From: Bacteroidota bacterium | Lineage (GTDB): Bacteria; Bacteroidota; Ignavibacteria; UBA10030; UBA8401 | DNA length: 64,000 nt | Direction of reading: 5' to 3' | Assembly: GCA_008933835.1 (NCBI GenBank) | Contig: WBUG01000002.1 | Coordinates: forward strand, 62,929-126,928 | Part shown: positions 2-39,518 of the stretch, piece by piece | How the letters are laid out: each line of letters begins with the position of its first letter | Position numbering within the stretch: the stretch's first letter is position 1 | The notes under the pieces: generated by a model | Told to the model about the DNA's origin: nothing | Database searches by the model: none | What the model saw: only the letters and a program-made list of their open reading frames with translations | Translations under genes and position numbers: made by a program

Positions 2-1534
2 TCGTGCCACGGCTCCGCAGAGATGACGCAGGGGGTCGCCTCGAGCTTCATCCATGCGTACGAGCAGAGCGTCCATGCGAACGCCCTGAAGAACGGGAAC
101 GGGAAGGCGGCCAACTGCGTGGACTGCCACAGCAGTCATGATATGCAGAAGGGTTCGCACCCGGACTCGAAGGTGAACAAGAAGAACATCCCCGGCACCT
201 GCGCCCAGTGTCATGAAGGTGTCGTGAAGACGTACGAGACGAGCATCCACGGAAAAGCGTTCGCCGGCGGGAACACCGTGTCGCCGGTCTGCACGGACTG
301 TCACGGCGAGCATAAGATCCTCGGCACCAAGGACCCCGATTCCCCCGTCTCGAAGCTCCACGTCGCCGAAGAGGTCTGCGCCCCCTGCCACGCTTCGGTG
401 AAGATGTCCGAGAAGTTCGGGCTCCCCACCGGGAAGACGAACACGTTCAACGACAGCTTCCACGGTCTGGCCGTGAAGTCCGGAAGCAAGGAAGCGGCGA
501 ACTGCGCCAGCTGCCACGGCTACCACGATATCCTGCCGTCGTCCGACCCCGCCTCGCGCGTGAGCAAGTCGAACCTCGCGAAGACCTGCGGCACCTGTCA
601 TCCCGGCGCGGGGGAGAACTTCTCCGCCGGCGTCGTGCACGTCTCCACCAAGGCGGACAGTGAGGACGACCTCATCGCGTTCGTCTCGAACATCTACGTG
701 GTGCTCATCCTCGTCACCATCGGCGGCATGGCCGCGCACAACATCCTCGACTTCGTCCGGAAGTCAAAACGCCGGCTGCAGCACCGCCGCCACGGTCCCG
801 GCGAGGAGGAGGTCGGCCACAGTCTGTACGTCCGCATGACCCTCGGCGAACGTCTGCAGCACGGAGCGCTCGCCCTGAGCTTCATCACCCTGGTCGTCAC
901 CGGATTCATGCTCCGCTATCCGGACGCCTGGTGGGTGGTGGGGATCCGCTCTCTGAGCGAATCGGTGTTCGAGATCCGCGGCGTCATCCACCGCGTGGCC
1001 GCCGTCGTGATGGTCCTGGCCTCGCTGTACCACCTCTATTATATCTTCTTCGTCCCCCGCGGCAAGCAGCTCATCCGTGACCTTCTGCCCAAGGTGCAGG
1101 ACGCGTACGACGCCATCGGCGTGGCACGCTATAACCTCGGTCTTTCGAAGGAAAAGCCGCTGCTGGACCGCTTCAGTTACATCGAAAAGGCCGAATACTG
1201 GGCCCTGATCTGGGGGACCATCGTCATGGCCGTCACCGGCGTCATCCTCTGGTTCGACGTCACGTTCATCAATCTCATCGGCAAGCAGCTGTGGGACGTC
1301 TCCCGCGTCGTGCACTACTACGAGGCATGGCTCGCCACGCTCGCCATCATCGTCTGGCACTTCTACTTCATCATCTTCAATCCGGACGTCTATCCGATGA
1401 ACCTCGCCTGGCTCAAGGGGACCATCTCGGAAGAGGAGATGGCGGACGAACATCCGCTGGAACTCCGCCGCATCAAGGAGGAACAGCTCCGCCTCGAGGA
1501 AGAGGAGAAGAAGAAGAACGCCGACATCAACTGA
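2..1534 (+). CDS. 5'-partial fusion protein: periplasmic multiheme cytochrome c domain plus C-terminal FdnI/HydC-type membrane cytochrome b domain (CbcL-like inner-membrane quinol oxidoreductase)
   Basis: The reading frame is open from the window edge; upstream codons already read ..SCHG, so the gene starts before position 1. Six complete CxxCH motifs are visible: CVDCH, CAQCH, CTDCH, CAPCH, CASCH and CGTCH. About 4-5 His-containing transmembrane helices follow (LILVTIGGMAAHNILDF, LALSFITLVVTGFMLRY, AAVVMVLASLYHLYYIFF, IVMAVTGVILWF, LATLAIIVWHFYFIIF), typical of Ni/Fe-hydrogenase or formate dehydrogenase b-type cytochrome subunits. Confidence 0.8.
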   Translation, partial: SCHGSAEMTQGVASSFIHAYEQSVHANALKNGNGKAANCVDCHSSHDMQKGSHPDSKVNKKNIPGTCAQCHEGVVKTYETSIHGKAFAGGNTVSPVCTDCHGEHKILGTKDPDSPVSKLHVAEEVCAPCHASVKMSEKFGLPTGKTNTFNDSFHGLAVKSGSKEAANCASCHGYHDILPSSDPASRVSKSNLAKTCGTCHPGAGENFSAGVVHVSTKADSEDDLIAFVSNIYVVLILVTIGGMAAHNILDFVRKSKRRLQHRRHGPGEEEVGHSLYVRMTLGERLQHGALALSFITLVVTGFMLRYPDAWWVVGIRSLSESVFEIRGVIHRVAAVVMVLASLYHLYYIFFVPRGKQLIRDLLPKVQDAYDAIGVARYNLGLSKEKPLLDRFSYIEKAEYWALIWGTIVMAVTGVILWFDVTFINLIGKQLWDVSRVVHYYEAWLATLAIIVWHFYFIIFNPDVYPMNLAWLKGTISEEEMADEHPLELRRIKEEQLRLEEEEKKKNADIN

Positions 1535-1555
1535 GACCACCAAGCGGAGCAACGT

Positions 1556-3055
1556 ATGAAGGACCTGCGGTCACTGCTTCCCACGACGTTCTTCAATCCC
1601 GTCAGTTACCTCGGCGGTGCGGTATCCGTCGCCAGTTTCATCCTCATCCTGTTCCTCTTCACCGTGGAGATGCTCGGCGTGCCGATGCAGCCGTACGTCG
1701 GCATCATCACCTTCGTGGTGCTGCCGGGCATCATGCTCCTCGGCATCGCGGTCAGCCTGTACGGCATGCGGCGCGAGAAACGGCGCCGGCTCCGCACCGG
1801 TTCCGAGACCGCGGTGTTCCCCACGCTGGACCTGAACGACCCGGTGCAGCGCACGCGGTTCACCTTCGCTTCCATCCTCGTCTTCATCCTGCTGCTCGGC
1901 ACCGCGTTCGGCAGCTACCAGGTGTACCATTTCACCGAGTCGGTCACCTTCTGCGGTCAGATCTGCCATCAGGTGATGAAACCCGAGTTCGTCGCCTATT
2001 CCAACTCGCCGCACTCCCGCGTCACCTGCGCCGACTGTCACGTGGGGTCGGGTGCGGACTGGTACGTGAAGTCCAAGCTCTCCGGAGCGTACCAGATCTA
2101 CTCCGTCATCTTCAAGAAGTACTCGCAGCCCATCCCCACGCCGGTGCACAGCCTTCGGCCGGCGCAGGGGACGTGCGAACAGTGCCACTACCCGCAGCAT
2201 TTCCATAACGACATCCAGGTCAACAAGACGTACTACCTGAAGGACGAGGCGAACACGCCGTGGTCGGTCTCGCTGCTGATGAAGATCAGCGGCGGCCGGT
2301 CGGACTCCGGCCCCACCTCCGGCATCCACTGGCACGTCAACCGCGACCACGCCGTCACCTACACCGCCGTCGATTCGCAGCGGCAGAACATCCCCGTCGT
2401 CCGCGTCCGCTACCCCGATGCGAGCGAGGACGAGTTCGTGACCACGGATGCGTATGACGCTGCGGCGCTGGCAGCGGGCGAGACGCGCACCATGGACTGC
2501 ATCGACTGCCACAATCGGCCGACGCACATCTACCGTTCGCCGGAAGAGACCATCAACGCCGAGATGTCGCACGGCGCCATCGCTCCCACGCTCCCCTCGG
2601 TCCGCCTCACCGTCTCCGAAGCGCTCACGCAGGAGTACGCGGACGACGAGGCGGCGATGAAAGGCATCGCTTCGTACATCACCGACTTCTACCGCCTCCG
2701 CCATCCGGCGCTGTTCGCGTCACGGCGGACGGAGATCGACTCCGCCGTCAGCGTCGCGAAGCGCATCTATGAGCGGAACTTCTTCCCGTACATGCGCGTG
2801 AGCTGGAAACGGTACCCGAACAACATCGGCCACTTCAACAACCTCGGATGCTTCCGGTGCCACGACAACAAGCATGTGTCGAAGAAGACCGGGAAGGTGC
2901 TGTCGAACGACTGCAACACCTGTCATACCATCCTTTCGCAGGGGACGTCGCTCGCCTCGAACATCTCGCCGAAGGGGCTCGAGTTCCTCCATCCGGTCGA
3001 CATCGGCGATGCCTGGAAAACGATGAACTGCATCGACTGCCATACGGGACAATGA
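1556..3055 (+). CDS. membrane-anchored heptaheme cytochrome c (ImcH-like / NapC-NirT-related candidate quinol dehydrogenase)
   Basis: The N-terminus has 2-3 hydrophobic transmembrane segments. Seven heme motifs follow: CGQICH (CX3CH), CADCH, CEQCH, CIDCH, CFRCH, CNTCH and CIDCH. Length of about 499 aa and the heme count match the ImcH family. Confidence 0.7.
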   Translation: MKDLRSLLPTTFFNPVSYLGGAVSVASFILILFLFTVEMLGVPMQPYVGIITFVVLPGIMLLGIAVSLYGMRREKRRRLRTGSETAVFPTLDLNDPVQRTRFTFASILVFILLLGTAFGSYQVYHFTESVTFCGQICHQVMKPEFVAYSNSPHSRVTCADCHVGSGADWYVKSKLSGAYQIYSVIFKKYSQPIPTPVHSLRPAQGTCEQCHYPQHFHNDIQVNKTYYLKDEANTPWSVSLLMKISGGRSDSGPTSGIHWHVNRDHAVTYTAVDSQRQNIPVVRVRYPDASEDEFVTTDAYDAAALAAGETRTMDCIDCHNRPTHIYRSPEETINAEMSHGAIAPTLPSVRLTVSEALTQEYADDEAAMKGIASYITDFYRLRHPALFASRRTEIDSAVSVAKRIYERNFFPYMRVSWKRYPNNIGHFNNLGCFRCHDNKHVSKKTGKVLSNDCNTCHTILSQGTSLASNISPKGLEFLHPVDIGDAWKTMNCIDCHTGQ

Positions 3056-3235
3056 GGTCCGGTTCCTTCCCGACTTTGCAAAGGGGCCGATTTGGGTTTT
3101 CCTAATCGTAGGAAGCCGACCCCCGTTCTGATGCAAATTTCAACGGTTTTATGTTGGATTTTTCGGCACATAAATTGCCATAAAATGGGAGAGTTTCACT
3201 CTTTTCTTTCACACTTCACTTCAATGGAGACAGAC

Positions 3236-3748
3236 ATGAAAAAGCTTCTCTATCTTCTCTTCGCGGTCGTCATCGCGCTGCCGCTGGCCGCGCAGAACAA
3301 GTATGTCGGCGTGAAAGGTTGCGCCTGCCACAACATGCCGAAGCAGGGCAAGCAGGTGGACGTGTGGAAGAAGTCGGACCATGCGAAGGCGTTCGAGACC
3401 TTGAAGAGCGACAAGGCGGCGGAGATCGCGAAGAAGAACGGCATCGCCTCCGCGGCCGAAGCGAAGCAGTGTCTCGAGTGTCACTCCACCGGCGCCGGTG
3501 ATCCGGCCGAGAAGACCTTCGCCGCCGCCGACGGTGTGCAGTGCGAAGCGTGCCACGGTGCCGCCTCCGGATACAAGGCCATTCATAACAAGCCCGAGAA
3601 CAAAGAGAAGGCGGTCGCCGCCGGTCTGCTGAAGGCCGATGAGAAGACCTGCAAGCCGTGCCACGGCGCCAACAAGATGCACGACGCGAAACCGTTCGAC
3701 TACAAGAAAGCGTGGGAACAGATCAAGCATCCGGCACCGAAAGGCTGA
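3236..3748 (+). CDS. small secreted cytochrome c (3 canonical CxxCH plus one atypical CACH)
   Basis: An internal ATG at 3236 gives the signal peptide MKKLLYLLFAVVIALPLAAQ. Motifs are CLECH, CEACH, CKPCH and GCACH. The upstream in-frame extension of the track ORF lies in an AT-rich non-coding gap and is rejected. Confidence 0.75.
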   Translation: MKKLLYLLFAVVIALPLAAQNKYVGVKGCACHNMPKQGKQVDVWKKSDHAKAFETLKSDKAAEIAKKNGIASAAEAKQCLECHSTGAGDPAEKTFAAADGVQCEACHGAASGYKAIHNKPENKEKAVAAGLLKADEKTCKPCHGANKMHDAKPFDYKKAWEQIKHPAPKG

Positions 3749-3750
3749 GT

Positions 3751-5031
3751 ATGGAACGGACACTTCTGGCGGCGCTCGTGCTGCTGTCGATGACGGCGGA
3801 CGCGCAGTCGATCAACGGCCGGCTGACGACATCGTTCTACGGCTTTGAAGGCCGCGATGCCGCGCTGGCGAAGCAGACCTACCTCCGGGCGTACGAGAAC
3901 GTGTACCTGAACGCCTCCAGCGGTGATGTTTCATTCAATATGAACGCGATGGTCAGCAACGATTTCGGCTCCGACCTCGCGACCGACCCCGAACTCCGAA
4001 TCTCCTCCTTACTGGTGAAGGTGAGAAAGATTGGCGGCTTGGCGGACCTGTCCGTCGGCCGCCAATTCATTTTCGCCGGTGCCGGGTACGGTCTCATCGA
4101 CGGCGCGCAGACGGGACTCCGCTTCCTGGACGACCGGGTGAGCGTCACGCTGTACGGCGGAACGAACGTGGACCACACCCGCGACGTCCGCAAGCAGTGG
4201 ATCGGCAGCAACGGGATGTTCGGCGGCCAGGTCGTCTTCGCCCCCGTCGAGAACGGTTCGGTCGGTCTCAGCTATATGAACAAACGGCGGGAGCGCGCGC
4301 CGTACACCGCCGTCCGTGCGGACTCGCTCTTCAATCCCTACATCATCGTCGTCAACAGCACCCCGCTCGAAGAGGAGCTCGCCTCGGTCGATGCGGAGTA
4401 TGAGTTCGGCCACGCGGTGATGCTGCAGGCGAAGGCGGACTATGACGTCCACCATGCTGAGCTCTCCCGCATCCAGGCCTTCACCCGCGTGCACGCCATG
4501 GAAGGCCTCAGCGGAACGCTGGAGTACATCTTCCGCGAACCCCGCGTCGCCTACAACTCCATCTTCTCCGTCTTCAACACCAACAGCACGCAGGAGATCG
4601 AAGGGGGTCTCGAGTACCGTCACAGTCCCTTCTTTTTCCTCTTCGCCCGCTTCGCGGACGTGCAGTATGTGGACGACAACAGCCAGCGGCTGTCGGTGGG
4701 TGGGACGTACGAGTTCCTCTCCGCCGCGTACACCCAGAACTTCGGATACGCCGGCGAACTCAACGGCGTCTCCCTGCAGGCGGCCTATCCGCTGATGGAC
4801 CGTGTCATCACCCCCACGTGCGGGTTCGGCTACGCCTCCTATAAACATGCGAAAGACGACCCGTCCAGCACGGTCGTCAACCTGGCGGCCGGAGCGGTCT
4901 ACCGTCCCAGCAAGTACATCTCGGCGGACGTGCAGCTGCAGTGGATGCAGAATCCGCAGTTCGACAGCGACATGCGCGCCTTCGTCAAGTTCACCTATTG
5001 GTTCAACGATCGTTTGGGGTGGCTGGAATGA
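3751..5031 (+). CDS. outer-membrane beta-barrel protein (porin partner of a porin-cytochrome complex)
   Basis: An internal ATG at 3751 gives the signal peptide MERTLLAALVLLSMTADAQS. The protein is rich in alternating hydrophobic/Gly/Tyr beta-strand patterns and has an aromatic-rich C-terminus (FVKFTYWFNDRLGW). It starts 2 nt after the small cytochrome gene, and its stop overlaps the next cytochrome's start. Confidence 0.7.
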   Translation: MERTLLAALVLLSMTADAQSINGRLTTSFYGFEGRDAALAKQTYLRAYENVYLNASSGDVSFNMNAMVSNDFGSDLATDPELRISSLLVKVRKIGGLADLSVGRQFIFAGAGYGLIDGAQTGLRFLDDRVSVTLYGGTNVDHTRDVRKQWIGSNGMFGGQVVFAPVENGSVGLSYMNKRRERAPYTAVRADSLFNPYIIVVNSTPLEEELASVDAEYEFGHAVMLQAKADYDVHHAELSRIQAFTRVHAMEGLSGTLEYIFREPRVAYNSIFSVFNTNSTQEIEGGLEYRHSPFFFLFARFADVQYVDDNSQRLSVGGTYEFLSAAYTQNFGYAGELNGVSLQAAYPLMDRVITPTCGFGYASYKHAKDDPSSTVVNLAAGAVYRPSKYISADVQLQWMQNPQFDSDMRAFVKFTYWFNDRLGWLE

Positions 5032-6233
5032 AAAAGAACCTCACCATCGCCGCGGCCGCCGCCGTCCTCATCGGTCTGGTCCTCTTCGGACGCGGAACCG
5101 TCGTGGCGGACGATGCAGCGCCGGCGGACAAGACGCAGCTCATCAAGTTCTCCCATGCCAAGCACGCCGAGGCCGGTGCCGAATGCGCGTCCTGTCATAA
5201 AGCGGACCTCAGCGACAACTCCTCGGACCGCATGCTCCCCGGCCACGCCGAGTGCCAGTCCTGCCACGAGCAGGAAGTGAACGAGAATTGCTCCTTCTGC
5301 CACACCAATCCCGACGATCCGCAGGCCCTTCCCAATCCCGTCCGCTCCCTCTTCTTCAGCCATAAACAGCATGTCGGTATGGAGGGGGTGAAGTGCGAGA
5401 CGTGCCATCAGGGGATGGACAAAGCGGACTTCGCCGGTCATCAGAACCTTCCCGCCATGGCGACCTGCAATACGTGCCATAACGACGTGAAGGCGACGAA
5501 CCAGTGCGAAGCGTGCCACACGGACCTCTCGAACCTCCGTCCGGCGTCGCACAACGTTGCCAATTTCAAGCGCGAGCATGCGCGCGTCATGAGCCTCCGC
5601 ACGTTCGAAGCGAAGTGCCAGTCCTGCCACACCGAGCAGTCCTGCGCTGAGTGTCATGACGGCACCAATCTGACCGAACTGGCCCCCGGCGTGAAGAGCG
5701 GTCTGCTCTCGCCGCGGCACGCCGCCGGCGACAAGGCGGTCGCTCTGGCGGGCGAAGCGGTGCACGGCATGAACTACCGCTTCACGCACGGCATCGATGC
5801 CAAAGGCCGCGCGGCGGACTGCCAGACCTGCCACAGCAGCCAGCAGTTCTGCAGCGACTGCCACATGAACGGCTCCGCCGCCCTCGGCGGTGCGATGCCC
5901 ACCAGCCATGAGGCGCCCGGCTTCACCACCATCGGCGTCGGATCGGGCGGCGGCTCGCATGCGACCCTCGCGAAGCGCGACATCCAGCGCTGCATGACCT
6001 GTCACGACACGGAAGGGGGCGACCCCAACTGCATCACCTGCCATGCGGACTACGACGGCATCAAGGGGACCAATCCCCGGACGCACAAGAGCGGCTTCAT
6101 GAAGGATAACGAACACGGCGAATGGCACGACGATGCGAACGCGAACTGCTTCGTCTGCCATACGGACGCCAATGCCAAACCGAGCGGAAGACCGGGACAG
6201 GGATTCTGCGGATATTGCCATGGTGTGAAATGA
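5028..6233 (+). CDS. periplasmic 14-heme c-type cytochrome (MtrA/OmaB-like periplasmic conduit cytochrome)
   Basis: The ATG at 5028 overlaps the porin stop (ATGA). Signal peptide is MKKNLTIAAAAAVLIGLVLFG. There are 14 CxxCH motifs: CASCH, CQSCH, CSFCH, CETCH, CNTCH, CEACH, CQSCH, CAECH, CQTCH, CSDCH, CMTCH, CITCH, CFVCH and CGYCH. Confidence 0.85.
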   Translation: MKKNLTIAAAAAVLIGLVLFGRGTVVADDAAPADKTQLIKFSHAKHAEAGAECASCHKADLSDNSSDRMLPGHAECQSCHEQEVNENCSFCHTNPDDPQALPNPVRSLFFSHKQHVGMEGVKCETCHQGMDKADFAGHQNLPAMATCNTCHNDVKATNQCEACHTDLSNLRPASHNVANFKREHARVMSLRTFEAKCQSCHTEQSCAECHDGTNLTELAPGVKSGLLSPRHAAGDKAVALAGEAVHGMNYRFTHGIDAKGRAADCQTCHSSQQFCSDCHMNGSAALGGAMPTSHEAPGFTTIGVGSGGGSHATLAKRDIQRCMTCHDTEGGDPNCITCHADYDGIKGTNPRTHKSGFMKDNEHGEWHDDANANCFVCHTDANAKPSGRPGQGFCGYCHGVK

Positions 6234-7054
6234 TGAACACGACCCTTCGTTTCGGGACCCTGGCGCTCGTCGCCGCGCTGCTCCTCGGCGGATGCGCCGA
6301 GACCAAAGAGGACAAGGTGCCCACCACGCCGGAAGTGTCGGTGCACGGCGCCGGTTTCGCCGACATTTCTTCGTCGAACTTCCACGCGAAGTACATCCAG
6401 GGGAAGAACTTCGACCTCTCGCTGTGCAAGACCTGCCACGGTCCCGATTTCTCCGGCGGAACGTCCGGGAAGTCGTGCAACACCTGCCACAGCAAGCCCG
6501 GCGGACCGGAGAACTGCACCGTCTGCCACGGCAGCGTGAATGCCGCACCGCCGTTCGATCTGGCGGGCAACGTATCGCCCGCATCGCGCGCCGTCGGAGC
6601 GCACCAGGTCCATCTGCTCGGCGGCCTCGTCGGCGCCAAGGTCACATGCACCGAGTGCCATGTCGTCCCTGCGGCCCTCACTGCCGCAGGACACATCGAC
6701 AATTCAGCCCATGCAGAGGTGCGGTTCGACCCTTCGTCGGTCTTCTATAAGGCGGACGCCGTGTTCAGCGGCAGCGGTACGACGGCCACCTGTTCCAACA
6801 CCTACTGCCACGGCAACTTCCCCGGCGGTAACGGCAACGTGACCATGACCTGGAGCGATACCAATCCGGACGCTGCCGCCTGCGGTACCTGCCATGGCGA
6901 CGTCACCAAGGCGACCTTCGCCGAGAAGGCGTTCCCGAAGAGCGGTCATCCTGCTATCGGCAGCATGACGTGCAACCAATGTCATTCGCGCACGGTGAAC
7001 AGCCTTGCGCAGATCATCGATCCGTCGAAGCATGTGAACGGCGTGGTCGATTAA
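6230..7054 (+). CDS. lipoprotein multiheme cytochrome c (7 heme motifs; putative outer-membrane/surface cytochrome)
   Basis: The ATGATG start overlaps the upstream stop. A lipobox (LLLGGC) is present. Motifs are CKTCH, CNTCH, CTVCH, CTECH, CSNTYCH (CX4CH), CGTCH and CNQCH. Confidence 0.8.
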   Translation: MMNTTLRFGTLALVAALLLGGCAETKEDKVPTTPEVSVHGAGFADISSSNFHAKYIQGKNFDLSLCKTCHGPDFSGGTSGKSCNTCHSKPGGPENCTVCHGSVNAAPPFDLAGNVSPASRAVGAHQVHLLGGLVGAKVTCTECHVVPAALTAAGHIDNSAHAEVRFDPSSVFYKADAVFSGSGTTATCSNTYCHGNFPGGNGNVTMTWSDTNPDAAACGTCHGDVTKATFAEKAFPKSGHPAIGSMTCNQCHSRTVNSLAQIIDPSKHVNGVVD

Positions 7055-7133
7055 CGAAAGTGACTCATCCTTCACCGGGAGTCATTTTGCACCAAGAACC
7101 AATCACTTCATCACTGAAAGGAGCGTTAAGACA

Positions 7134-8354
7134 GTGAAACATCTCCTGACTGTTCTGATCGCACTGTTGTTCCTTGCTCTCCAGGCCTGCGAAGGACCCG
7201 AAGGTCCCGCCGGCGCGCAGGGTCCTGCTGGTAAGGACGGCGCGAACGGACAGAACGCCGGCTTCGTGTACTTCGAAGGCTTCAAAGACAGCCTCCGCTG
7301 CGCGACCTGCCATACTCCCGATGCCGATACGGCGCTGTTCATGGCCGCGAAGACGTTGGAATACGAATCCGCCGGTCACATGGAAGGCACTTCATGGGCG
7401 CGCGGTATCAACAGCGGCGATTGCGCCAGCTGCCACATCACTGAAGGGTATCTCGAATCGGCACGCGGCAATTTCGCGTCACAGGCGACCAAGCTCTACT
7501 CGCATGGTTCGCAGCCCGGTTGCTTCACCTGCCATTCGCCGCATAAGGCCGGTTCGTTTGCGGTCCGCAAGACCGATGCGATCAAGGTGAAATCCTTCGT
7601 TGCCGGCGCTGCCGACCTGCAGTTCAACGTCGGTTCGTCCAACACCTGCGTCACCTGCCATCGTACGCGTGAGACTAGCCCGATGACGAACAGCGTTTTC
7701 GTGAACGGCGTCAGCGGCAACCCCGATCCGACGAAGACGGCAGCGACCGACTCCATCGAGATCAAGACCAGCCGCTTCTATCCTCACTATGGCGTCCAGG
7801 GCCAGATTCTGACCGGAAAGGGAGGATTTGAGTTCACCGGATATACCTACCCGTCATCGTATCACACGAATCTGGCGGCGGCAAAGAACATCCAGTGCTC
7901 CGACTGCCATATGGCGAATCCGACCGTCATCGTGAACGGTACACCGGTCGCCGGCGGACACACCCTGAAGATCGGGTACAGCTCCATTTCCACCGACTCC
8001 GCGAACAATATGGTGAACGTCGCCGGTTGCCGGACGACGGGATGCCATCCGAGCGCCTTCACCGCCAACACGGTGACCGCGACGGTGTTCGCCGCGTTCA
8101 AGCAGTCCGGTCAGAAAGCGCTGCAGGATTCCATGGCCACGCTGAAGTCCATGCTTGTCTCGAAAGGCTGGCTCGATCCGGCGACGGACCTTGCCAAGCT
8201 GACCGGCGGCAAACTGGTGATCAAGCCCGCCTATAAGGCCGGTGCATTGTTCAACTACTTCTTCTTGGAACATGAAGGAAGCCACGGCATGCACAACATG
8301 CAGTATGCTCAGGCGTTGCTGAATGCTTCGTTGGCGGAACTCCGCAAACCGTAA
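7134..8354 (+). CDS. lipoprotein multiheme cytochrome c with N-terminal collagen-like Gly-X-Y stalk (6 heme motifs)
   Basis: GTG start at 7134 with the RBS aaaggag about 10 nt upstream. Lipobox is LALQAC. A (GPE)(GPA)(GAQ)(GPA)(GKD)(GAN)(GQN) stretch follows. Heme motifs are CATCH, CASCH, CFTCH, CVTCH, CSDCH and CRTTGCH (CX4CH). Confidence 0.8.
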   Translation: MKHLLTVLIALLFLALQACEGPEGPAGAQGPAGKDGANGQNAGFVYFEGFKDSLRCATCHTPDADTALFMAAKTLEYESAGHMEGTSWARGINSGDCASCHITEGYLESARGNFASQATKLYSHGSQPGCFTCHSPHKAGSFAVRKTDAIKVKSFVAGAADLQFNVGSSNTCVTCHRTRETSPMTNSVFVNGVSGNPDPTKTAATDSIEIKTSRFYPHYGVQGQILTGKGGFEFTGYTYPSSYHTNLAAAKNIQCSDCHMANPTVIVNGTPVAGGHTLKIGYSSISTDSANNMVNVAGCRTTGCHPSAFTANTVTATVFAAFKQSGQKALQDSMATLKSMLVSKGWLDPATDLAKLTGGKLVIKPAYKAGALFNYFFLEHEGSHGMHNMQYAQALLNASLAELRKP

Positions 8355-35798: not shown

Positions 35799-37858
35799 TG
35801 AAACGGTCCATCGTCATATCGCTTCTGCTGATCGCTGCGGCGGGACCGGTCTCCGCTCAAAGCGACACCCTCATCTCGTCGCCGTCGCTCTCGTTCAGCC
35901 GCGGCAAACTGTGGCACAGCGTCTTCAACGGGAAGAGCGGTCCGAACTTCGCCAACTGGGGACGGCGCGGCATCGGACTGGACTGGCCCGGATACGACGA
36001 GACGTGGGTGAACGAGGACATCGGCGGACCGTCGTCGTACCTCGTGACGGGGGGATTCTTCATCGGGGCGAAGAAACAGGCGGACACCATCATCGCCGTG
36101 GAGGACTGGTCCATCTACGGCTCGACCATCTCGTCCGAAGTGAACTCGAAGTACCGTCTGCGGAGCCACCGCCACCTCTATCCCAACGGCACCAACTGGG
36201 GGATGAAGACGAAGGCGAAGGCGGGCGAGGAGGTCATCGAGACCGTGTGGGAGTACAATCCCGGTTTCAGTTCGCAGGTGGACCAGAACCAGCTCTTCCC
36301 CGTGCTTCCGGTCCGCGTCACGCGGCGGGCGCATCAGTGGAACGGTTCCACGCGCGATGAGAACTACGTCCTCTACGAGTACATCATCAAGAACGTCTCG
36401 AACGAGTTCCCGCAGCTCAACGGCCATACGGTGGACACCCTCTTCGGACTCCGCATCGTGATGAACTACGCCCTGCAGGCGAACTCCCGTGCATGGAGCG
36501 TCCTCTTCCCGCAGCTCTCACCGGGTTCCCGGAACCTCGTTTTCGACACCGACAGCACCCAGCGGCTCACCCGCGCACGCGCCGGCGATTACAAGGAGGA
36601 GGCCGGTGACGAATCGTACATGTTCGCGTCGACGCAGGGCTACCGTGTGGAAGGGGATCCCACCGGCGAGTTCCTTGCGCCGGCCATCGTGGGGGTGAAG
36701 CTGCTCTACGCGACGCCGGAGGCGCGGTACAACGAACCCTCCCTGGTGAGCCGGTACGGATGGTCCGCCGCCAGCAACTCGGTGGACCTGAGCGGACCCG
36801 TGACCAACATCGGTTCCCTCGAAGCGCGGTACAATTTCCTCGCCGACATCGCCGCCGCGAACGCGTTCGTCGCGAACTATGCGGACCCGACGTACGCCGG
36901 ACGCTCGCGCGTCTGGTCCATGATGCAGCTCGGACCGTGGAACCTCGCTCCCGGCGACTCCGTCCGAATCGGCATCGCCGAGATCGTGGACGGTCCTTCC
37001 GATTCGCTCTGGTTCGACGAGAAGAAGCGGAGCCTCATCTCGTCCGAGGGAGCGACGCAGTTCAGCCGGTCCGTTCAGTTCGCGCAGCAGACGTGGCAGT
37101 TCAATCTGGACCATCCCGATCCGCCGGTCGCGCCGCCGTTCACGGTGGAGTACATCCGGAACCGCGAACGGTTCGCCGCCTCTGTCATCGAATGGAGCAG
37201 CGCATCGGAATCGCTGCCGGACCCCGACGACGGCACGCTCGACCTCGCCGGATACCGGGTGTACCGCTCGTTCCATCTGCCGACCGGACCCTGGAAGCGC
37301 ATCGCCGACATCCGGAAAGGTGACCCCGCCTTCTATGATGCGGCGGGGGGGAAGTACGCGTTCGTCGATTCTACCGGAGATATCGGGACGAACTATTACT
37401 ATGCCCTCACCGCGTACGACACCGGAAAGGCCTCCTGGCCGGTGAGTCCGTCCACCATCTTCCAGCCCGGCGGCACGGGAGCGCGCAGAGTGCCGCCGCT
37501 CGAATCGTCCATCTTCGCCAACCGGCTGAGCCGTCCGTTCCGTATGACCATCGCGCCGGCGAAATCACAGAACGACGTCCTGGTGGTCCCGAATCCGTTC
37601 GTCATCTCCCGCGGCGTGTCGCAGGTCGGTTCGGGGGACGACATCCTCTTCACCAACGTCCCGAACCCCTGCACCATCCGTATCTACACCGTCCGCGGCG
37701 ATCTGGTGCGCACCATCGAGGTGCCGGAGGGAACGGGAGGGATCGTTTCGTGGAACCAGCAGACCGGATACGGTCAGTTCGCTGAGAGCGGCATCTACAT
37801 CTTCCACGTCGATTCACCCGCCGGCACGAAGGTCGGCAAGTTCGCCATCATCCGATGA
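35798..37858 (+). CDS. secreted hypothetical protein with C-terminal T9SS/FlgD-Ig-like sorting-type domain
   Basis: Signal peptide MKRSIVISLLLIAAAGPVSAQ. C-terminus LVVPNPFVISRG...NPCTIRIYTVRGDLVRTIEV...GIYIFHVDSPAGTKVGKFAIIR. The start overlaps the TonB-dependent receptor stop. Confidence 0.55.
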   Translation: MKRSIVISLLLIAAAGPVSAQSDTLISSPSLSFSRGKLWHSVFNGKSGPNFANWGRRGIGLDWPGYDETWVNEDIGGPSSYLVTGGFFIGAKKQADTIIAVEDWSIYGSTISSEVNSKYRLRSHRHLYPNGTNWGMKTKAKAGEEVIETVWEYNPGFSSQVDQNQLFPVLPVRVTRRAHQWNGSTRDENYVLYEYIIKNVSNEFPQLNGHTVDTLFGLRIVMNYALQANSRAWSVLFPQLSPGSRNLVFDTDSTQRLTRARAGDYKEEAGDESYMFASTQGYRVEGDPTGEFLAPAIVGVKLLYATPEARYNEPSLVSRYGWSAASNSVDLSGPVTNIGSLEARYNFLADIAAANAFVANYADPTYAGRSRVWSMMQLGPWNLAPGDSVRIGIAEIVDGPSDSLWFDEKKRSLISSEGATQFSRSVQFAQQTWQFNLDHPDPPVAPPFTVEYIRNRERFAASVIEWSSASESLPDPDDGTLDLAGYRVYRSFHLPTGPWKRIADIRKGDPAFYDAAGGKYAFVDSTGDIGTNYYYALTAYDTGKASWPVSPSTIFQPGGTGARRVPPLESSIFANRLSRPFRMTIAPAKSQNDVLVVPNPFVISRGVSQVGSGDDILFTNVPNPCTIRIYTVRGDLVRTIEVPEGTGGIVSWNQQTGYGQFAESGIYIFHVDSPAGTKVGKFAIIR

Positions 37859-38796
37859 ACCGGAACACCGTCATAGCGCTGTGGATGCTGCTGGCCGCCG
37901 TCACCGCGGGCGCACAGGAGTTCCGGAGCACCGCCACGGCGGGATTCGTGTTCCTGGAGATCCCCATGACCGCCCGCTCCGCGGCGCTCGGCGAGGCGAC
38001 GGTCGCGCTGGCGGACGCCGGTTCGTCCGGACTCTTCATGAACCCGGCCGCCATCGGCTTCATGACCGCCTCCCATTCCGTCTCGTTCTCCACCGCCCGG
38101 TGGTTCGCGGAGATCGACCATTTCGGCGGAAGCTACGCCCTGACGACGGAAGCGGGGAACTTCGGCATCACCACCGCCATCCTCGATTACGGCACCATGC
38201 CGCTCACCGTCCGGACGGGGGGAGAGCGGACGTTCGCCTCCATCGGCACCTTCACGGCGCAGGCGGCGGCGGTGGGACTCACCTACAGCCGCGCCCTCAC
38301 GGACCGGTTCTCGTTCGGTGTGGGACTGAAGTACGTGCGCGAAACGATCCACGAGTACAGCGCCTCGAACATCCTCTTCGACGGCGGCATCATCTACCAC
38401 ACCGGATTCCGTTCGCTCCGTCTCGGAGCGAGCATGATGAACTTCGGAACGAACGCGCAGTACATCAACGACCCGTTCAAGATGCCGACGCTGCTCCGGC
38501 TCGGCGTGGCGGCCGAACTGCTGGGAGGGTTCGACGAGGACCTCCGCGTCACCGGACTGGCCGAAGCGCTCCATCCCAGCGACGCGCCGGAACGGGTGAA
38601 CGCCGGCGTCGAGGTGGGACTGTACCGCATGGTCACGCTCCGCGCAGGATATAAGTTCTTCTCGGACGAGGAATCGTTCACCGCCGGCGTCGGACTGGAC
38701 GCCGCGCGGGTGATGCCGCTCGCGCTCGATGTGGCGGTGTCGCGCTACGGCCGGCTCGGCGACATCGTTCGGCTCACCATCACGGGGGCGTTGTGA
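37855..38796 (+). CDS. PorV/PorQ-family (FadL-like) outer-membrane beta-barrel protein
   Basis: Signal peptide followed by the FadL/PorV-type N-terminal motif GFVFLEIPMTARSAALGEATVALADAGSSGLFMNPAAIGF. ATGA overlap with the upstream gene. Confidence 0.5.
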   Translation: MNRNTVIALWMLLAAVTAGAQEFRSTATAGFVFLEIPMTARSAALGEATVALADAGSSGLFMNPAAIGFMTASHSVSFSTARWFAEIDHFGGSYALTTEAGNFGITTAILDYGTMPLTVRTGGERTFASIGTFTAQAAAVGLTYSRALTDRFSFGVGLKYVRETIHEYSASNILFDGGIIYHTGFRSLRLGASMMNFGTNAQYINDPFKMPTLLRLGVAAELLGGFDEDLRVTGLAEALHPSDAPERVNAGVEVGLYRMVTLRAGYKFFSDEESFTAGVGLDAARVMPLALDVAVSRYGRLGDIVRLTITGAL

Positions 38797-39518
38797 TGCG
38801 GCGGAGCGTCATCATATCGCTCCTGGCGTTCTTCGCCCTCTCCACAGCAGCGGCGCAGCTTCGCTCCGTGCAGTTCTCGGCGGCGGCGGACCTGGTGCCG
38901 GAAAAACGACTCGGGATCACCGAAGCATCGGCGTACGGAGGCCGTCTTTCGGTCTCCTACGGTGTCGGCGACGCCGGCACGGTGACCGTCGATGTGGGCT
39001 ACTCACGGTACGACATCGAACAGCCGGACGAGGTCGTTCGGTGGGGATGGACCATCTGGGACCGCCGGTACCGGAACTGGGTCAGCATCTATTCCGCCGA
39101 CACGGCCAATTTTACCGGAAAGGTCGAATCGGTCCAGTCGATGGAATCGGTCCCCGTGACGGTGAAGTACTCGCACCGCTTCCCGCTGACGGAGGACATC
39201 ACCGTCGCGCCGCTCCTCGGCGCCGGAGTGGAGTTCTATACGCGCAAACTGTATCATAACGAGACCTGGACGCGGAAGTATCCGCAGGACGGATACCAGT
39301 TCACGTACTCGTACCACAATTTCGCGCCGTACAAGAGCGGCAATCCGCTCTTCGGCGTCGCCGGCGTCAACGCCGAAGCCCGGTTGTCCCGCATCATCGT
39401 GCTCACTGCGGGAGCGGAACTGCGCCGGTATCTCGACACACCCGGTTCGTTCGGCTATGACGCCTATCCATTCTCCACGGCGCTCTCGCTCTTCGCCGGC
39501 ATAGGATTCACCTACTGA
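38793..39518 (+). CDS. small outer-membrane beta-barrel protein, hypothetical
   Basis: Signal peptide MMRRSVIISLLAFFALSTAAAQ. Amphipathic strands, ending FAGIGFTY. Confidence 0.5.
   Translation: MMRRSVIISLLAFFALSTAAAQLRSVQFSAAADLVPEKRLGITEASAYGGRLSVSYGVGDAGTVTVDVGYSRYDIEQPDEVVRWGWTIWDRRYRNWVSIYSADTANFTGKVESVQSMESVPVTVKYSHRFPLTEDITVAPLLGAGVEFYTRKLYHNETWTRKYPQDGYQFTYSYHNFAPYKSGNPLFGVAGVNAEARLSRIIVLTAGAELRRYLDTPGSFGYDAYPFSTALSLFAGIGFTY

Follow-up and report, generated by a model that had tools for sequence, protein, structure and literature searches.

Outside Shewanella and Geobacter, it is poorly understood how surface cytochromes are positioned with respect to the membrane, the lipopolysaccharide and the exit of a porin-cytochrome conduit. 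A 406-residue hexaheme lipoprotein (7134..8354, forward strand, GTG start), encoded in the 64,000-nucleotide stretch of Bacteroidota DNA analysed here (the window), raises this question in a particular form, since seven collagen-like G-X-Y triplets follow almost directly upon its lipobox. What do these triplets do between a lipid anchor and a heme domain? Our preferred reading, to which we assign a probability of roughly 0.55, is that they form a conserved, modular collagen-like stalk joining the lipid anchor at Cys19 to the hexaheme electron-transfer domain, and that this stalk is probably trimeric.

Seven triplets beside a lipobox

The reading frame is preceded by a Shine-Dalgarno-like AAAGGAG (7117..7123, +), 10 nt 5' of the GTG, and the protein begins MKHLLTVLIALLFLALQA-C19-E20-GPE-GPA-GAQ-GPA-GKD-GAN-GQN-AGFVYFEGF... 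The PROSITE-type lipobox rule comprises a basic N-terminal residue, a hydrophobic core and, by about residue 35, [LVI..][..][AGS]-C. The target has K2, a hydrophobic core and L-Q-A-C, as bacterial lipoproteins processed by SPase II do, and residues 1-18 thus read as a lipoprotein signal peptide (with the lipobox, 7134..7190, +); Cys19 (7188..7190, +) is the residue whose lipidation the lipobox predicts, and the first of the mature protein. The N-terminus and the Cys are invariant in the family alignment, and homologs down to 39% identity keep the same N-terminus, with LVAC, LIAC, FAAC, LFGC and others as lipobox variants among 120 homologs. Ribosome-binding site, lipobox rule and conserved N-terminus therefore all support the start codon and lipobox assigned by the first-pass annotation.

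The run itself covers aa 21-41 (7194..7256, +), Gly21 beginning at 7194 and Asn41 finishing at 7256, with the single residue E20 separating it from Cys19. The first-pass annotation had placed these seven perfect triplets exactly, although 'heptad repeat' was a misnomer for them, and its 'proline-rich' overstates the case, Pro accounting for only 3 of the 21 residues, each at an X position (triplets 1, 2 and 4). Neither K-G-E nor K-G-D occurs as a junction in the target's run, which counts against the stalk.

Collagen-like proteins are defined by uninterrupted G-X-Y with Gly strictly at every third position, and this is what the target shows, in a run that is short beside characterised members. 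The resemblance to Streptococcus Scl1/Scl2, Bacillus BclA, Legionella Lcl and Burkholderia Bucl extends to the lack of an evident hydroxylation system, to Pro mainly at X, to charged triplets (GKD) and, in the target's family, K-G-D/E junctions, to a repeat number that varies by strain, and to a place between the cell envelope and a globular domain for which the repeat acts as a stalk. Characterised bacterial collagens comprise tens to about 80 triplets, whereas the target has 7 and its family 3-12; they carry an adhesin or spore-surface domain where the target carries a multiheme cytochrome; and, unlike in those proteins, no separate trimerisation domain was identified in the target. Because the run begins one residue after the predicted lipidated Cys, the lipid would hold the putative helix by its N-terminal end. 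Collagen-like lipoproteins have been predicted earlier, in the B. cepacia complex (PMC10224339).

The Pfam Collagen model (PF01391), to which the first-pass annotation had pointed, stays below threshold on the target (14.4 bits, E 0.032, against a 27.2-bit cutoff); the run spans only about a third of this 60-residue model, and family members with 12 triplets carry a precomputed PF01391 match (P0106). The AlphaFold2 (AF2) monomer has no secondary structure across aa 20-45, with a mean pLDDT of 51 for aa 21-30 and 44 for aa 31-40, and values below 50 across aa 30 to 45. Such predicted disorder is to be expected of a monomer, and as a model outcome is not informative on a triple helix.

Conservation and reuse of the head

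The first-pass annotation would have abandoned the stretch as a chance feature had it been absent or non-conserved in homologs; it is instead present at the same position in all 120 full-length family members, beginning one residue after the Cys in every one of them and comprising 3-12 triplets. G21, G24 and G27 are invariant, and P22, P25 and G30 are conserved to at least 90%. Gly is in phase in 717/717 family triplets, while X positions contain only 7 Gly and Y positions 16. The variation in length between strains, which had been proposed for examination, is readily seen: between the end of the run and the first heme Cys lie 11-14 aa in 116/120 members, so the variation from 3 to 12 triplets consists entirely of whole triplets, and such differences occur even inside clusters of at least 90% identity (5/6/8, 6/7, 7/8, 9/11 and 8/9 triplets; the 48-aa and 39-aa members of two such clusters are unrelated fragments).

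The composition of the run is graded along its length. Pro makes up 46% of X positions overall, reaching 92-95% in triplets 1-2 and falling to 14% by triplet 5. Junctions of the form [KR]-G-[DE] number 34 in the family against 10.2 +/- 2.4 in within-run shuffles, and 16 against 5.4 +/- 1.7 in the independent heads described below; in neither set did any of 2000 shuffles reach the observed count. Among remoter members of the heme superfamily the spacing from Cys to Gly comes to 1 residue in 61 representatives and to 3 residues in 24, and a sister clade has a plain, non-repetitive tether, C-E-R-K-[VI]-x-x-E. The heme domain of this clade works with that plain tether, and the collagen head is thus not something that the heme domain requires.

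To catalogue the head beyond this family, we scanned one genome per species for a signal peptide followed by Cys-[EK]-GPxGPxG. This genome-wide scan returned 92 heads, mostly from Bacteroidota and allied phyla, 25-27 of them on multiheme cytochromes, namely a large hexaheme superfamily homologous to the target and MtrC-type decahemes. The first-pass annotation had called collagen-like triplets rare in cytochromes, a view that these counts overturn. C-terminal domains of at least 12 kinds, unrelated in sequence, follow the head, including MtrC/MtrF decahemes (PF22113, 172 bits), EB_dh, a secreted-type trypsin-like protease and a large Flavobacteriaceae family, and Gly is in phase in 721/721 triplets of the independent heads. 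The Cys-[EK]-collagen head is therefore a general module that is also found on non-heme lipoproteins, and its occurrence in front of so many unrelated domains fits a self-contained structural unit. Some members are already named "collagen-like protein" in databases. In the literature searched we found no paper that describes the head and none that joins 'collagen-like' with 'multiheme cytochrome'; a search on collagen, lipoprotein and Bacteroidetes or Ignavibacteria likewise returned nothing relevant.

A putative trimeric stalk or a flexible tether

The proposed stalk would have two parts, a Pro-rich cap, C-[EK]-G-P-x-G-P-x-G, beside the lipidated Cys, and then G-X-Y triplets of polar or charged character, gained or lost only as complete units. 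The membrane would bring three lipidated chains together, and their G-X-Y segments would wind into a short collagen triple helix, ~6 nm long in the target and 2.6-10 nm across the family, which would keep the trimerised hexaheme domains, with 18 hemes in all, at a fixed distance from the outer membrane surface. There the domains would receive electrons from the porin-cytochrome conduit encoded upstream and hand them to extracellular acceptors; given a 6-nm insulating stalk, these electrons would have to come in from the side, by way of another cytochrome, which is a point against this reading. A triple helix is favoured because Gly holds its phase in every family and independent-head triplet, and we know of no other structure that requires Gly at every third residue. 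Moreover, the X-position Pro and the [KR]-G-[DE] excess give the runs a composition like that of bacterial collagens. The data show directly the run, its conservation, its strict periodicity and triplet-wise length changes, its reuse on unrelated domains, the fold of the heme domain and the conserved gene cluster; lipidation, the triple helix, the trimer state, an outward-facing position, and where electrons come from and go to are inferred.

The stability of hydroxyproline-free (Hyp-free) bacterial collagens is ascribed to X-position Pro together with charge pairs, a [KR]-G-[DE] interchain ion pair contributing 15-17 °C of triple-helix stabilisation, and their Tm reaches a stable plateau near 150 residues (PMC7824840). 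The 21 residues of the target, without hydroxyproline, fall far short of the length that gives a stable Tm, which counts against the stalk; with so short a run, a triple helix would depend on added stabilisation by the lipid anchors and by a heme domain that itself trimerises.

Could the run instead be a monomeric tether, a polyproline-II-like or disordered spacer that is extended or flexible and never triple-helical, in which length rather than oligomerisation is under selection, comparable to the unstructured tethers that other surface lipoproteins have? We consider this possible but doubtful. Such a spacer fits the brevity of the runs, 27 members having only four triplets, their evolutionarily labile length, the disorder of the AF2 monomer at this point and the ordinary tether of the sister clade. 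It also fits the scan of ~31 window ORFs with Pfam or NCBIfam, in which no prolyl hydroxylase was found, and the precedent of the Geobacter lipoprotein cytochrome PgcA, whose repetitive Pro-rich (PTx) linkers have no collagen structure (PMC5732950). Yet a spacer of this kind does not account for Gly at every third residue, a pattern kept over more than 1400 triplets of the family and of 12 or more unrelated carriers, and it leaves unexplained why Gly stays under 3% at X or Y, why indels involve only whole triplets, and why [KR]-G-[DE] junctions are in threefold excess.

If the run is a rigid trimerising stalk, the head would serve as an easily recognised sequence mark of redox proteins displayed at the cell surface when metagenomes are searched, since roughly one in four of the heads found is on a multiheme cytochrome; Ignavibacteriota-like organisms would possess 18-heme trimeric terminal reductases; and natural collagen helices of very small length, with lipid anchors as their nuclei, would become available as a folding model and display scaffold. 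Should the run be a flexible tether and nothing more, what remains is a useful annotation rule and no new mechanism. More tentatively, and at less than even odds, the head may be an undescribed and widely reused membrane-anchored trimerisation and stalk module, in which three lipidated chains would nucleate, from the membrane surface, the shortest natural collagen triple helices known (4-12 triplets). Its preferred cargo in the Bacteroidota/Ignavibacteriota group, Gemmatimonadota and Myxococcota would be multiheme cytochromes (NrfA-like hexahemes and MtrC-type decahemes), held above the outer membrane at a height that can be tuned, with triplet gain and loss adjusting their reach toward minerals, electrodes or partner cells.

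Heme domain, gene cluster and the remaining alternatives

The domain that this putative stalk would carry (aa 42-406; 7257..8351, +) ends in a three-helix bundle and, in keeping with the multiheme cytochrome of the first-pass annotation, contains six heme motifs: five CXXCH (7299..7313, 7422..7436, 7521..7535, 7647..7661 and 7896..7910, +) and an invariant CX4CH (aa 299-305; 8028..8048, +). Its heme-core fold and C-terminal three-helix bundle are those of the NrfA/ONR/HAO/MccA/OcwA superfamily, and a fold search groups it with NrfA and OcwA rather than with MtrC/OmcA. A sequence search against PDB chains gave no significant match (best, MccA, E 0.16), and NCBIfam has no model for the family. 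Six non-motif His are invariant in the family alignment and could serve as distal heme ligands, and CXXCK is absent; all hemes are therefore probably bis-His, and the protein an electron carrier rather than a nitrite or hydroxylamine enzyme.

One homolog (P0088) bears the name NrfA at NCBI, an identity that we reject for the target since its motifs are CXXCH and CX4CH, without the catalytic CXXCK of NrfA, and the six invariant His could occupy the distal sites; Pfam Cytochrom_C552 scores 16.8 bits on it, below the 24.1 cutoff. An MtrC/OmcA decaheme is likewise rejected, as the target has six hemes, the NrfA/OcwA fold and no PF22113 domain II/IV pair, this model scoring 30.0 bits, with a cutoff of 30, on a single incomplete stretch. 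In fold the target resembles OcwA of Thermincola potens (PDB 6i5b) and OmhA of Carboxydothermus (6qvm), both cell-surface terminal reductases. It differs from its NrfA/ONR/HAO/MccA/OcwA relatives in having six hemes rather than 5, 8, 9 or 11, and from OcwA and OmhA, which are associated with the cell wall or S-layer of monoderms, in belonging to a diderm and reaching its predicted lipid anchor by way of a collagen-like run. These relatives are oligomeric, a point for the stalk reading: OcwA runs as monomer/dimer on gel filtration and crystallises as a dimer, NrfA forms dimers, and HAO and MccA form trimers.

Upstream of the target, on the same strand, lie genes that form with it a putative outer-membrane electron-export cluster. 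The product of the first unites a multiheme c domain with a cytochrome b of HydC/FdnI type (23..1534, +), the CbcL/MtrH/MtoC architecture (PMC6295460), whose relative in locus L001 has 911 residues. It is followed by a candidate NapC/NirT-like (NrfH/ImcH-like) membrane multiheme quinol dehydrogenase (1556..3055, +), a cytochrome c554-like multiheme protein (3092..3748, +; PF13435, 59.5 bits) and a 426-aa protein with a signal peptide and many aromatic residues (3751..5031, +), whose position is kept in relatives. This last protein matches no Pfam, NCBIfam or PDB family, including the MtrB/OmbB models in the searched libraries; its only hits are weak ones, to designed transmembrane beta-barrels (E 0.13), and it has a crude beta-amphipathicity (beta-moment) z of 1.7 and no hydrophobic helix. 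With no family match and so low a z, we call it porin-like by position only, a beta-barrel being the presumptive structure. A multiheme cytochrome of ~400 aa with an N-terminal signal/anchor follows (5028..6233, +; position kept in L123 and L124), presumably periplasmic or porin-inserted. Directly upstream of the target, here as in L001, L123 and L124, lies a second multiheme lipoprotein (6230..7054, +) with an LLLGGC lipobox, a plain acidic tether (CAETKEDKVPTTPEVS) and a CX4CH...CXXCH Geobacter-type domain.

This gene order is kept down to 41% identity. With its inner-membrane quinol oxidase candidates, periplasmic multiheme cytochromes, porin-like gene and lipoprotein cytochromes, the cluster is a putative porin-cytochrome-like set reminiscent of OmaB-OmbB-OmcB in Geobacter and MtrCAB in Shewanella, and porin-cytochrome clusters have been reported in Ignavibacteria (PMC7399161). 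A surface role for a multiheme cytochrome encoded in such a conserved cluster is plausible. The target departs from MtrCAB/OmcB-type conduits in that its outer cytochrome has an NrfA-like fold instead of that of MtrC/OmcA, and its tether is G-X-Y periodic where those of Geobacter and Shewanella outer cytochromes and of PgcA are PTx or non-repetitive.

Were the lipoprotein to face the periplasm instead, anchored in the inner membrane or in the outer membrane's inner leaflet, the stalk would span the periplasm and bridge the inner-membrane quinol oxidases to the porin-cytochrome. A canonical surface-export signal is indeed absent from the target, and with two lipoprotein cytochromes in the cluster one could be periplasmic. 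We nonetheless judge this orientation unlikely, as the same head is found on a secreted-type protease, on an EB_dh domain and on MtrC/MtrF-type decahemes, and the closest structural relatives include the cell-surface OcwA and OmhA. MtrC and MtrF are surface lipoproteins in Shewanella.

Still less probable, in our estimation, is that C-[EK]-G-P-x-G-P acts mainly as a sorting or export signal, or as a cleavage site for release, the later triplets being secondary. The first two triplets are far more conserved than the rest, unrelated lipoproteins mostly of Bacteroidota and allied phyla share them, and PgcA-type cytochromes are released by proteolysis. Residues +2 to +6 after the Cys direct surface export in Bacteroidota, and the head resembles this lipoprotein export signal in being a short conserved motif from +2 to about +8 in mainly Bacteroidota-related phyla; the mature C-E-G-P-E-G-P of the target, however, lacks the acidic K-(D/E)2, Q-A-(D/E)2, SDDDD or SDDFE motif (PMC5080379). 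Nor does the head match C-X-K-(D/E)2-X, a signal defined by experiment. Moreover, the spacing from Cys to Gly shifts between 1 and 3 residues in remoter members, the periodicity conserved beyond the cap is left unexplained, and a signal in the cap would be compatible with the stalk rather than exclusive of it.

Finally, the view that the run is low-complexity sequence arisen by chance, or that start codon or lipobox were miscalled, is already refuted by the conservation data: DNA of 63% GC is rich in Gly codons and every frame has its share of four-triplet runs, 17 of them in the window, but runs of at least seven triplets have a Bernoulli expectation of 0.004 per window in six-frame translation (still below about 0.05, given an observed tail ~3x heavier), all 120 homologs, down to 39% identity, keep the run and signal peptide, the ribosome-binding site lies at the correct distance, and the frame has a coding GC3 bias (GC3 0.75 against GC2 0.49). 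The target's seven triplets are the longest in-phase Gly run in all six frames of the window, the runner-up having 5. At the DNA level the only tandem repetition in the run is a 9-bp unit present 2.2 times at 7190..7209, and present-day slippage on a perfect repeat does not account for the target's triplets, although unit gains of GPQ and GTN are seen in relatives.

A G-X-Y run directly after the lipobox

The 406-aa lipoprotein cytochrome encoded at 7134..8354 (+) starts at a GTG with AAAGGAG 10 nt 5' of it, and its N-terminus reads MKHLLTVLIALLFLALQA-C19-E-GPE-GPA-GAQ-GPA-GKD-GAN-GQN-AGFVYFEGFKDSLRC. The first-pass annotation placed seven G-X-Y triplets directly after the lipobox, and both position and count are exact (7194..7256); these are triplets, not the 'heptad repeat' it described, and, as to its 'proline-rich', Pro accounts for only 3 of 21 run residues. 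Its multiheme cytochrome is more precisely a hexaheme one, with five CXXCH motifs and one CX4CH. The protein matches KAB2925990.1 at 100% identity; that deposit is named 'hypothetical protein [Bacteroidetes bacterium]'. Within the collagen-coding stretch, 2.2 copies of a 9-bp unit (CGAAGGACC) at 7190..7209, across E20-GPE-GP, form the sole DNA-level repeat; no nucleotide repeat was found in the remainder.

Among 5.8 billion proteins searched, 244 homologs scored E below 1e-5, and the best 120 were examined for this head. The first-pass annotation had held that absence from homologs would mark the run as a chance feature; all 119 full-length proteins among these 120 (90% to 39% identity) carry it, as does the window protein, and the sole exception is an N-terminally truncated fragment. 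In the 120 full-length sequences, window protein included, a signal peptide leads to the lipobox Cys, and a single residue (E in 82, K in 36) separates this Cys from an unbroken run of 3-12 triplets (mode 7). In an 88-sequence alignment C19, G21, G24 and G27 are invariant, and P22, P25 and G30 are conserved in at least 90%. Gly is in phase in 717/717 family triplets and occupies X only 7 times and Y only 16. Pro fills 46% of X positions and 9% of Y, but falls from 92-95% of X in triplets 1 and 2 to 52%, 25% and 14% thereafter, so that the run comprises a Pro-rich membrane-proximal cap and a polar/charged variable part. Run end and first heme Cys lie 11-14 residues apart in 116/120, thus length variation is restricted to whole triplets. 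Variation among close strains, which had been named as arguing against chance, is indeed found: triplet counts inside clusters of at least 90% identity are 5/6/8, 6/7, 7/8, 9/11 and 8/9, through steps such as one added GPQ unit or added GTN units. A few relatives are named 'collagen-like protein' by NCBI. The Pfam Collagen HMM, proposed earlier as a check, scores the window run under threshold, which leaves it formally outside that family; longer relatives reach the threshold.

The head on unrelated proteins

To survey the head elsewhere, we scanned one genome per species (GTDB) at the DNA level for C-[EK]-G-P-x-G-P-x-G-x-x-G, which detected at least 120 loci. A hydrophobic signal sequence and lipobox directly precede the pattern in 92/121 of the matches listed. 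Because the pattern fixes the cap sequence, conservation of the cap at these loci is built in; past the cap, where nothing is imposed, the independent heads listed have 4-31 triplets with Gly in phase in 721/721. The listed carriers are mostly Bacteroidota, comprising Flavobacteriaceae (including cultured Maribacter, Flavobacterium, Dokdonia and Algoriphagus), Cytophagia and Bacteroidales, with others in Ignavibacteriota, Gemmatimonadota, Myxococcota, Latescibacterota and Dehalococcoidia.

With the run removed, the C-terminal parts form at least 12 BLAST-unrelated clusters. Among the matches listed, 52 of these parts are small domains (57-150 residues) without a Pfam match; 22 are cytochromes that have 5-6 CXXCH when complete and all match the window-family profile (E 1e-149 to 2e-11); five more are cytochromes carrying 7-10 CXXCH; trypsin-like proteases and others also occur. 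The one 7-10-CXXCH cytochrome scanned with Pfam (L081) matches MtrC/MtrF domains at 172 bits, and an EB_dh heme domain also bears the head. Multiheme cytochromes carry 25-27 of the 92 heads listed, so the earlier statement that cytochromes rarely carry such triplets fails for these phyla. A locus from Maribacter flavus (L006) and the homologs P0121-P0240 represent a large Flavobacteriaceae lipoprotein family of ~190 aa (1418 matches at E below 1e-5), named 'collagen-like protein' in source databases, with a Cys-E-GPxGPPG head, FDG/LDG/RDG triplets and a conserved ~140-aa C-terminal domain. This domain has no Pfam model, and its AF2 prediction (pLDDT only 61) gave no fold match.

The head would work like the collagen-like regions of the bacterial surface proteins Scl, BclA, Lcl and Bucl. 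Collagen-like lipoproteins were predicted earlier in Burkholderia (PMC10224339), and the Geobacter lipoprotein cytochrome PgcA has repetitive Pro-rich linkers (PMC5732950). The window protein's head differs from these precedents in being extremely short, directly adjoining the (predicted) lipidated Cys, having a conserved GPxGPx cap and carrying a cytochrome as cargo. No paper joining collagen-like sequences and multiheme cytochromes was found, which is weak evidence as most subscription journals lie outside the coverage. The head is a real, conserved structural module, akin to bacterial collagen-like proteins and outer lipoprotein cytochromes.

Triple helix or tether

The periodic Gly (more than 1400 triplets), the whole-triplet-only indels, Pro in X and modular reuse together argue for selection for a collagen triple helix, to our knowledge the sole structure requiring Gly at every third position. 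Judged from sequence, we favor a trimeric collagen-like stalk, a putative triple helix, at a probability of roughly 0.55. The [KR]-G-[DE] junction forms an interchain ion pair to which 15-17 °C of stabilization is attributed (PMC7824840). Such junctions are enriched about threefold in both sets relative to within-run shuffles (family, 34 vs 10.2 +/- 2.4; independent heads, 16 vs 5.4 +/- 1.7; 0/2000 shuffles as high in each), an enrichment which is supporting evidence only, as relatedness and tandem GDK units inflate the statistic. Length is the argument against a triple helix: the stability of Hyp-free bacterial collagen rises with length to ~150 residues (PMC7824840), and the run has 21, some relatives 12. 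A helix this short would have to be held by three lipid anchors at one end and a putative trimerizing heme domain at the other. With the collagen rise of 0.286 nm per residue, seven triplets would extend ~6 nm and the family's runs 2.6-10 nm. A stalk of ~6 nm would be unable to carry electrons, hence the heme domain would have to dock laterally or swing. It may dock sideways on a conduit cytochrome, either the neighboring lipoprotein or the putative porin-inserted one, or alternatively swing between conduit and acceptor.

The run may instead be a monomeric extended tether, a reading we hold as possible though clearly weaker; the strict Gly phase favors the triple helix, and the shortness of the run weighs against it. 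In the AF2 model, residues 21-30 average a pLDDT of 51 and residues 31-40 one of 44, values stay below 50 from residue 30 to 45, and the first secondary structure appears only from residue 56. A periplasm-facing lipoprotein is improbable, and compatible with the other readings. That the conserved cap is mainly a sorting or processing signal is slightly less probable again, and the cap matches none of the Bacteroidota export signals of PMC5080379. Chance or mis-annotation can be dismissed: the run is the longest in-phase Gly run over the window's six frames (runner-up, five triplets), runs of at least seven are expected ~0.004 times at the six-frame Gly frequency of 0.084 and still <0.05 times given an observed length tail ~threefold heavier than expected, and the codon-position GC pattern (GC3 0.75 vs GC2 0.49, in a 63% GC window) is that of a real gene.

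Heme domain and gene neighborhood

The six heme motifs and six further His are invariant in the 88-sequence alignment, and CXXCK is absent from it, a pattern suggestive of bis-His coordination at all six hemes and of the lack of a catalytic open site. The AF2 model (pLDDT 84.5) pairs a globular heme region with three long helices at the C-terminus, the architecture given for OcwA; a heme domain with three-helix bundle is common to OcwA, NrfA, HAO and MccA, and OcwA is a monomer/dimer mixture (PMC6703420). One homolog of 41% identity (P0088) is named 'ammonia-forming cytochrome c nitrite reductase subunit c552' by NCBI, probably an over-annotation given the family's six invariant candidate distal His, the lack of CXXCK and a sub-threshold Pfam Cytochrom_C552 match in the window protein.

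The heme domain alone, searched against 1.84 billion 50%-identity representatives, matched 830 clusters (E at most 1e-3). Among the best 150 of these, ~89 have a lipobox and G-X-Y run, ~23 a lipobox and ordinary tether (typically C-E-R-K-[VI]-x-x-E), and a few embed the domain in much bigger proteins; the collagen head is thus frequent and old in this superfamily, but exchangeable. In this wider set, 61 representatives have 1 residue between the Cys and the first Gly, and 24 have 3. A hexaheme sister clade (P0267, P0280, P0282, P0295, P0307, P0314, P0315, P0324, P0330, P0352) has a conserved C-E-R-K-[VI]-[VT]-x-E tether replacing the run, and P0242, P0247 and P0248 have an extra N-terminal domain of ~160 aa ahead of the heme domain.

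The cytochrome gene is the last of a same-strand (+) cluster. Upstream lie a 503-aa multiheme c domain fused to a HydC/FdnI-type cytochrome b (23..1534), the quinol-oxidase architecture of CbcL/MtrH/MtoC (PMC6295460); a NapC/NirT-like multiheme protein (1556..3055); a c554-like cytochrome (3092..3748); a 426-aa secreted protein without family match (3751..5031); a ~400-aa multiheme cytochrome (5028..6233); and a multiheme lipoprotein with a Geobacter-type CX4CH...CXXCH domain (6230..7054). The 426-aa protein may be a beta-barrel, as it gives weak matches to designed transmembrane barrels, has a beta-moment z of 1.7 and lacks a hydrophobic helix; porin-cytochrome clusters are already reported in Ignavibacteria (PMC7399161). 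The 6230..7054 lipoprotein has a plain acidic tether (CAETKEDKVPTTPEVS), such that one cluster's two lipoprotein cytochromes differ in tether; its K-E-D at +5 to +7 is loosely reminiscent of a Bacteroidota export signal in shifted position.

The same gene arrangement surrounds three homologs with 90%, 41% and 41% identity (loci L001, L123 and L124), where Rieske, cytochrome b and ~485-aa multiheme genes lie between the NapC/NirT-like and c554-like genes (window 1556..3748 against L001 1370..6609). No Rieske or cytochrome b homolog of these inserted genes was found in the window's entire 64 kb, so the cluster is shorter in this organism. The L001 relative of 23..1534 runs to 911 residues, and the window ORF has nothing equivalent to its upstream part. 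The ~400-aa multiheme gene, also present at L123 and L124, is missed by JGI calls at L001 7904..9109 and L002 (another contig) 1282..2487; its place is taken by two called minus-strand ORFs (121 and 179 aa), probably a mis-annotation in high-GC DNA.

Elsewhere in the window are an LpxC-FabZ-type fusion (FabA-like domain) adjoining lpxA (18200..19714, +) and a patatin-like phospholipase fused to POTRA and an Omp85 barrel (28053..30836, -). Over 31196..39518, a protein bearing a C-terminal sorting domain for type IX secretion (31196..32731) is followed by a SusC-like TonB-dependent receptor (32778..35798) and then by three consecutive ORFs without Pfam match (35798..37858, 37855..38796, 38793..39518). 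Together, the patatin-Omp85, LpxC-FabZ-type, type IX secretion and SusC-like genes are what we take to be expected of a Bacteroidota/Ignavibacteriota-group diderm.
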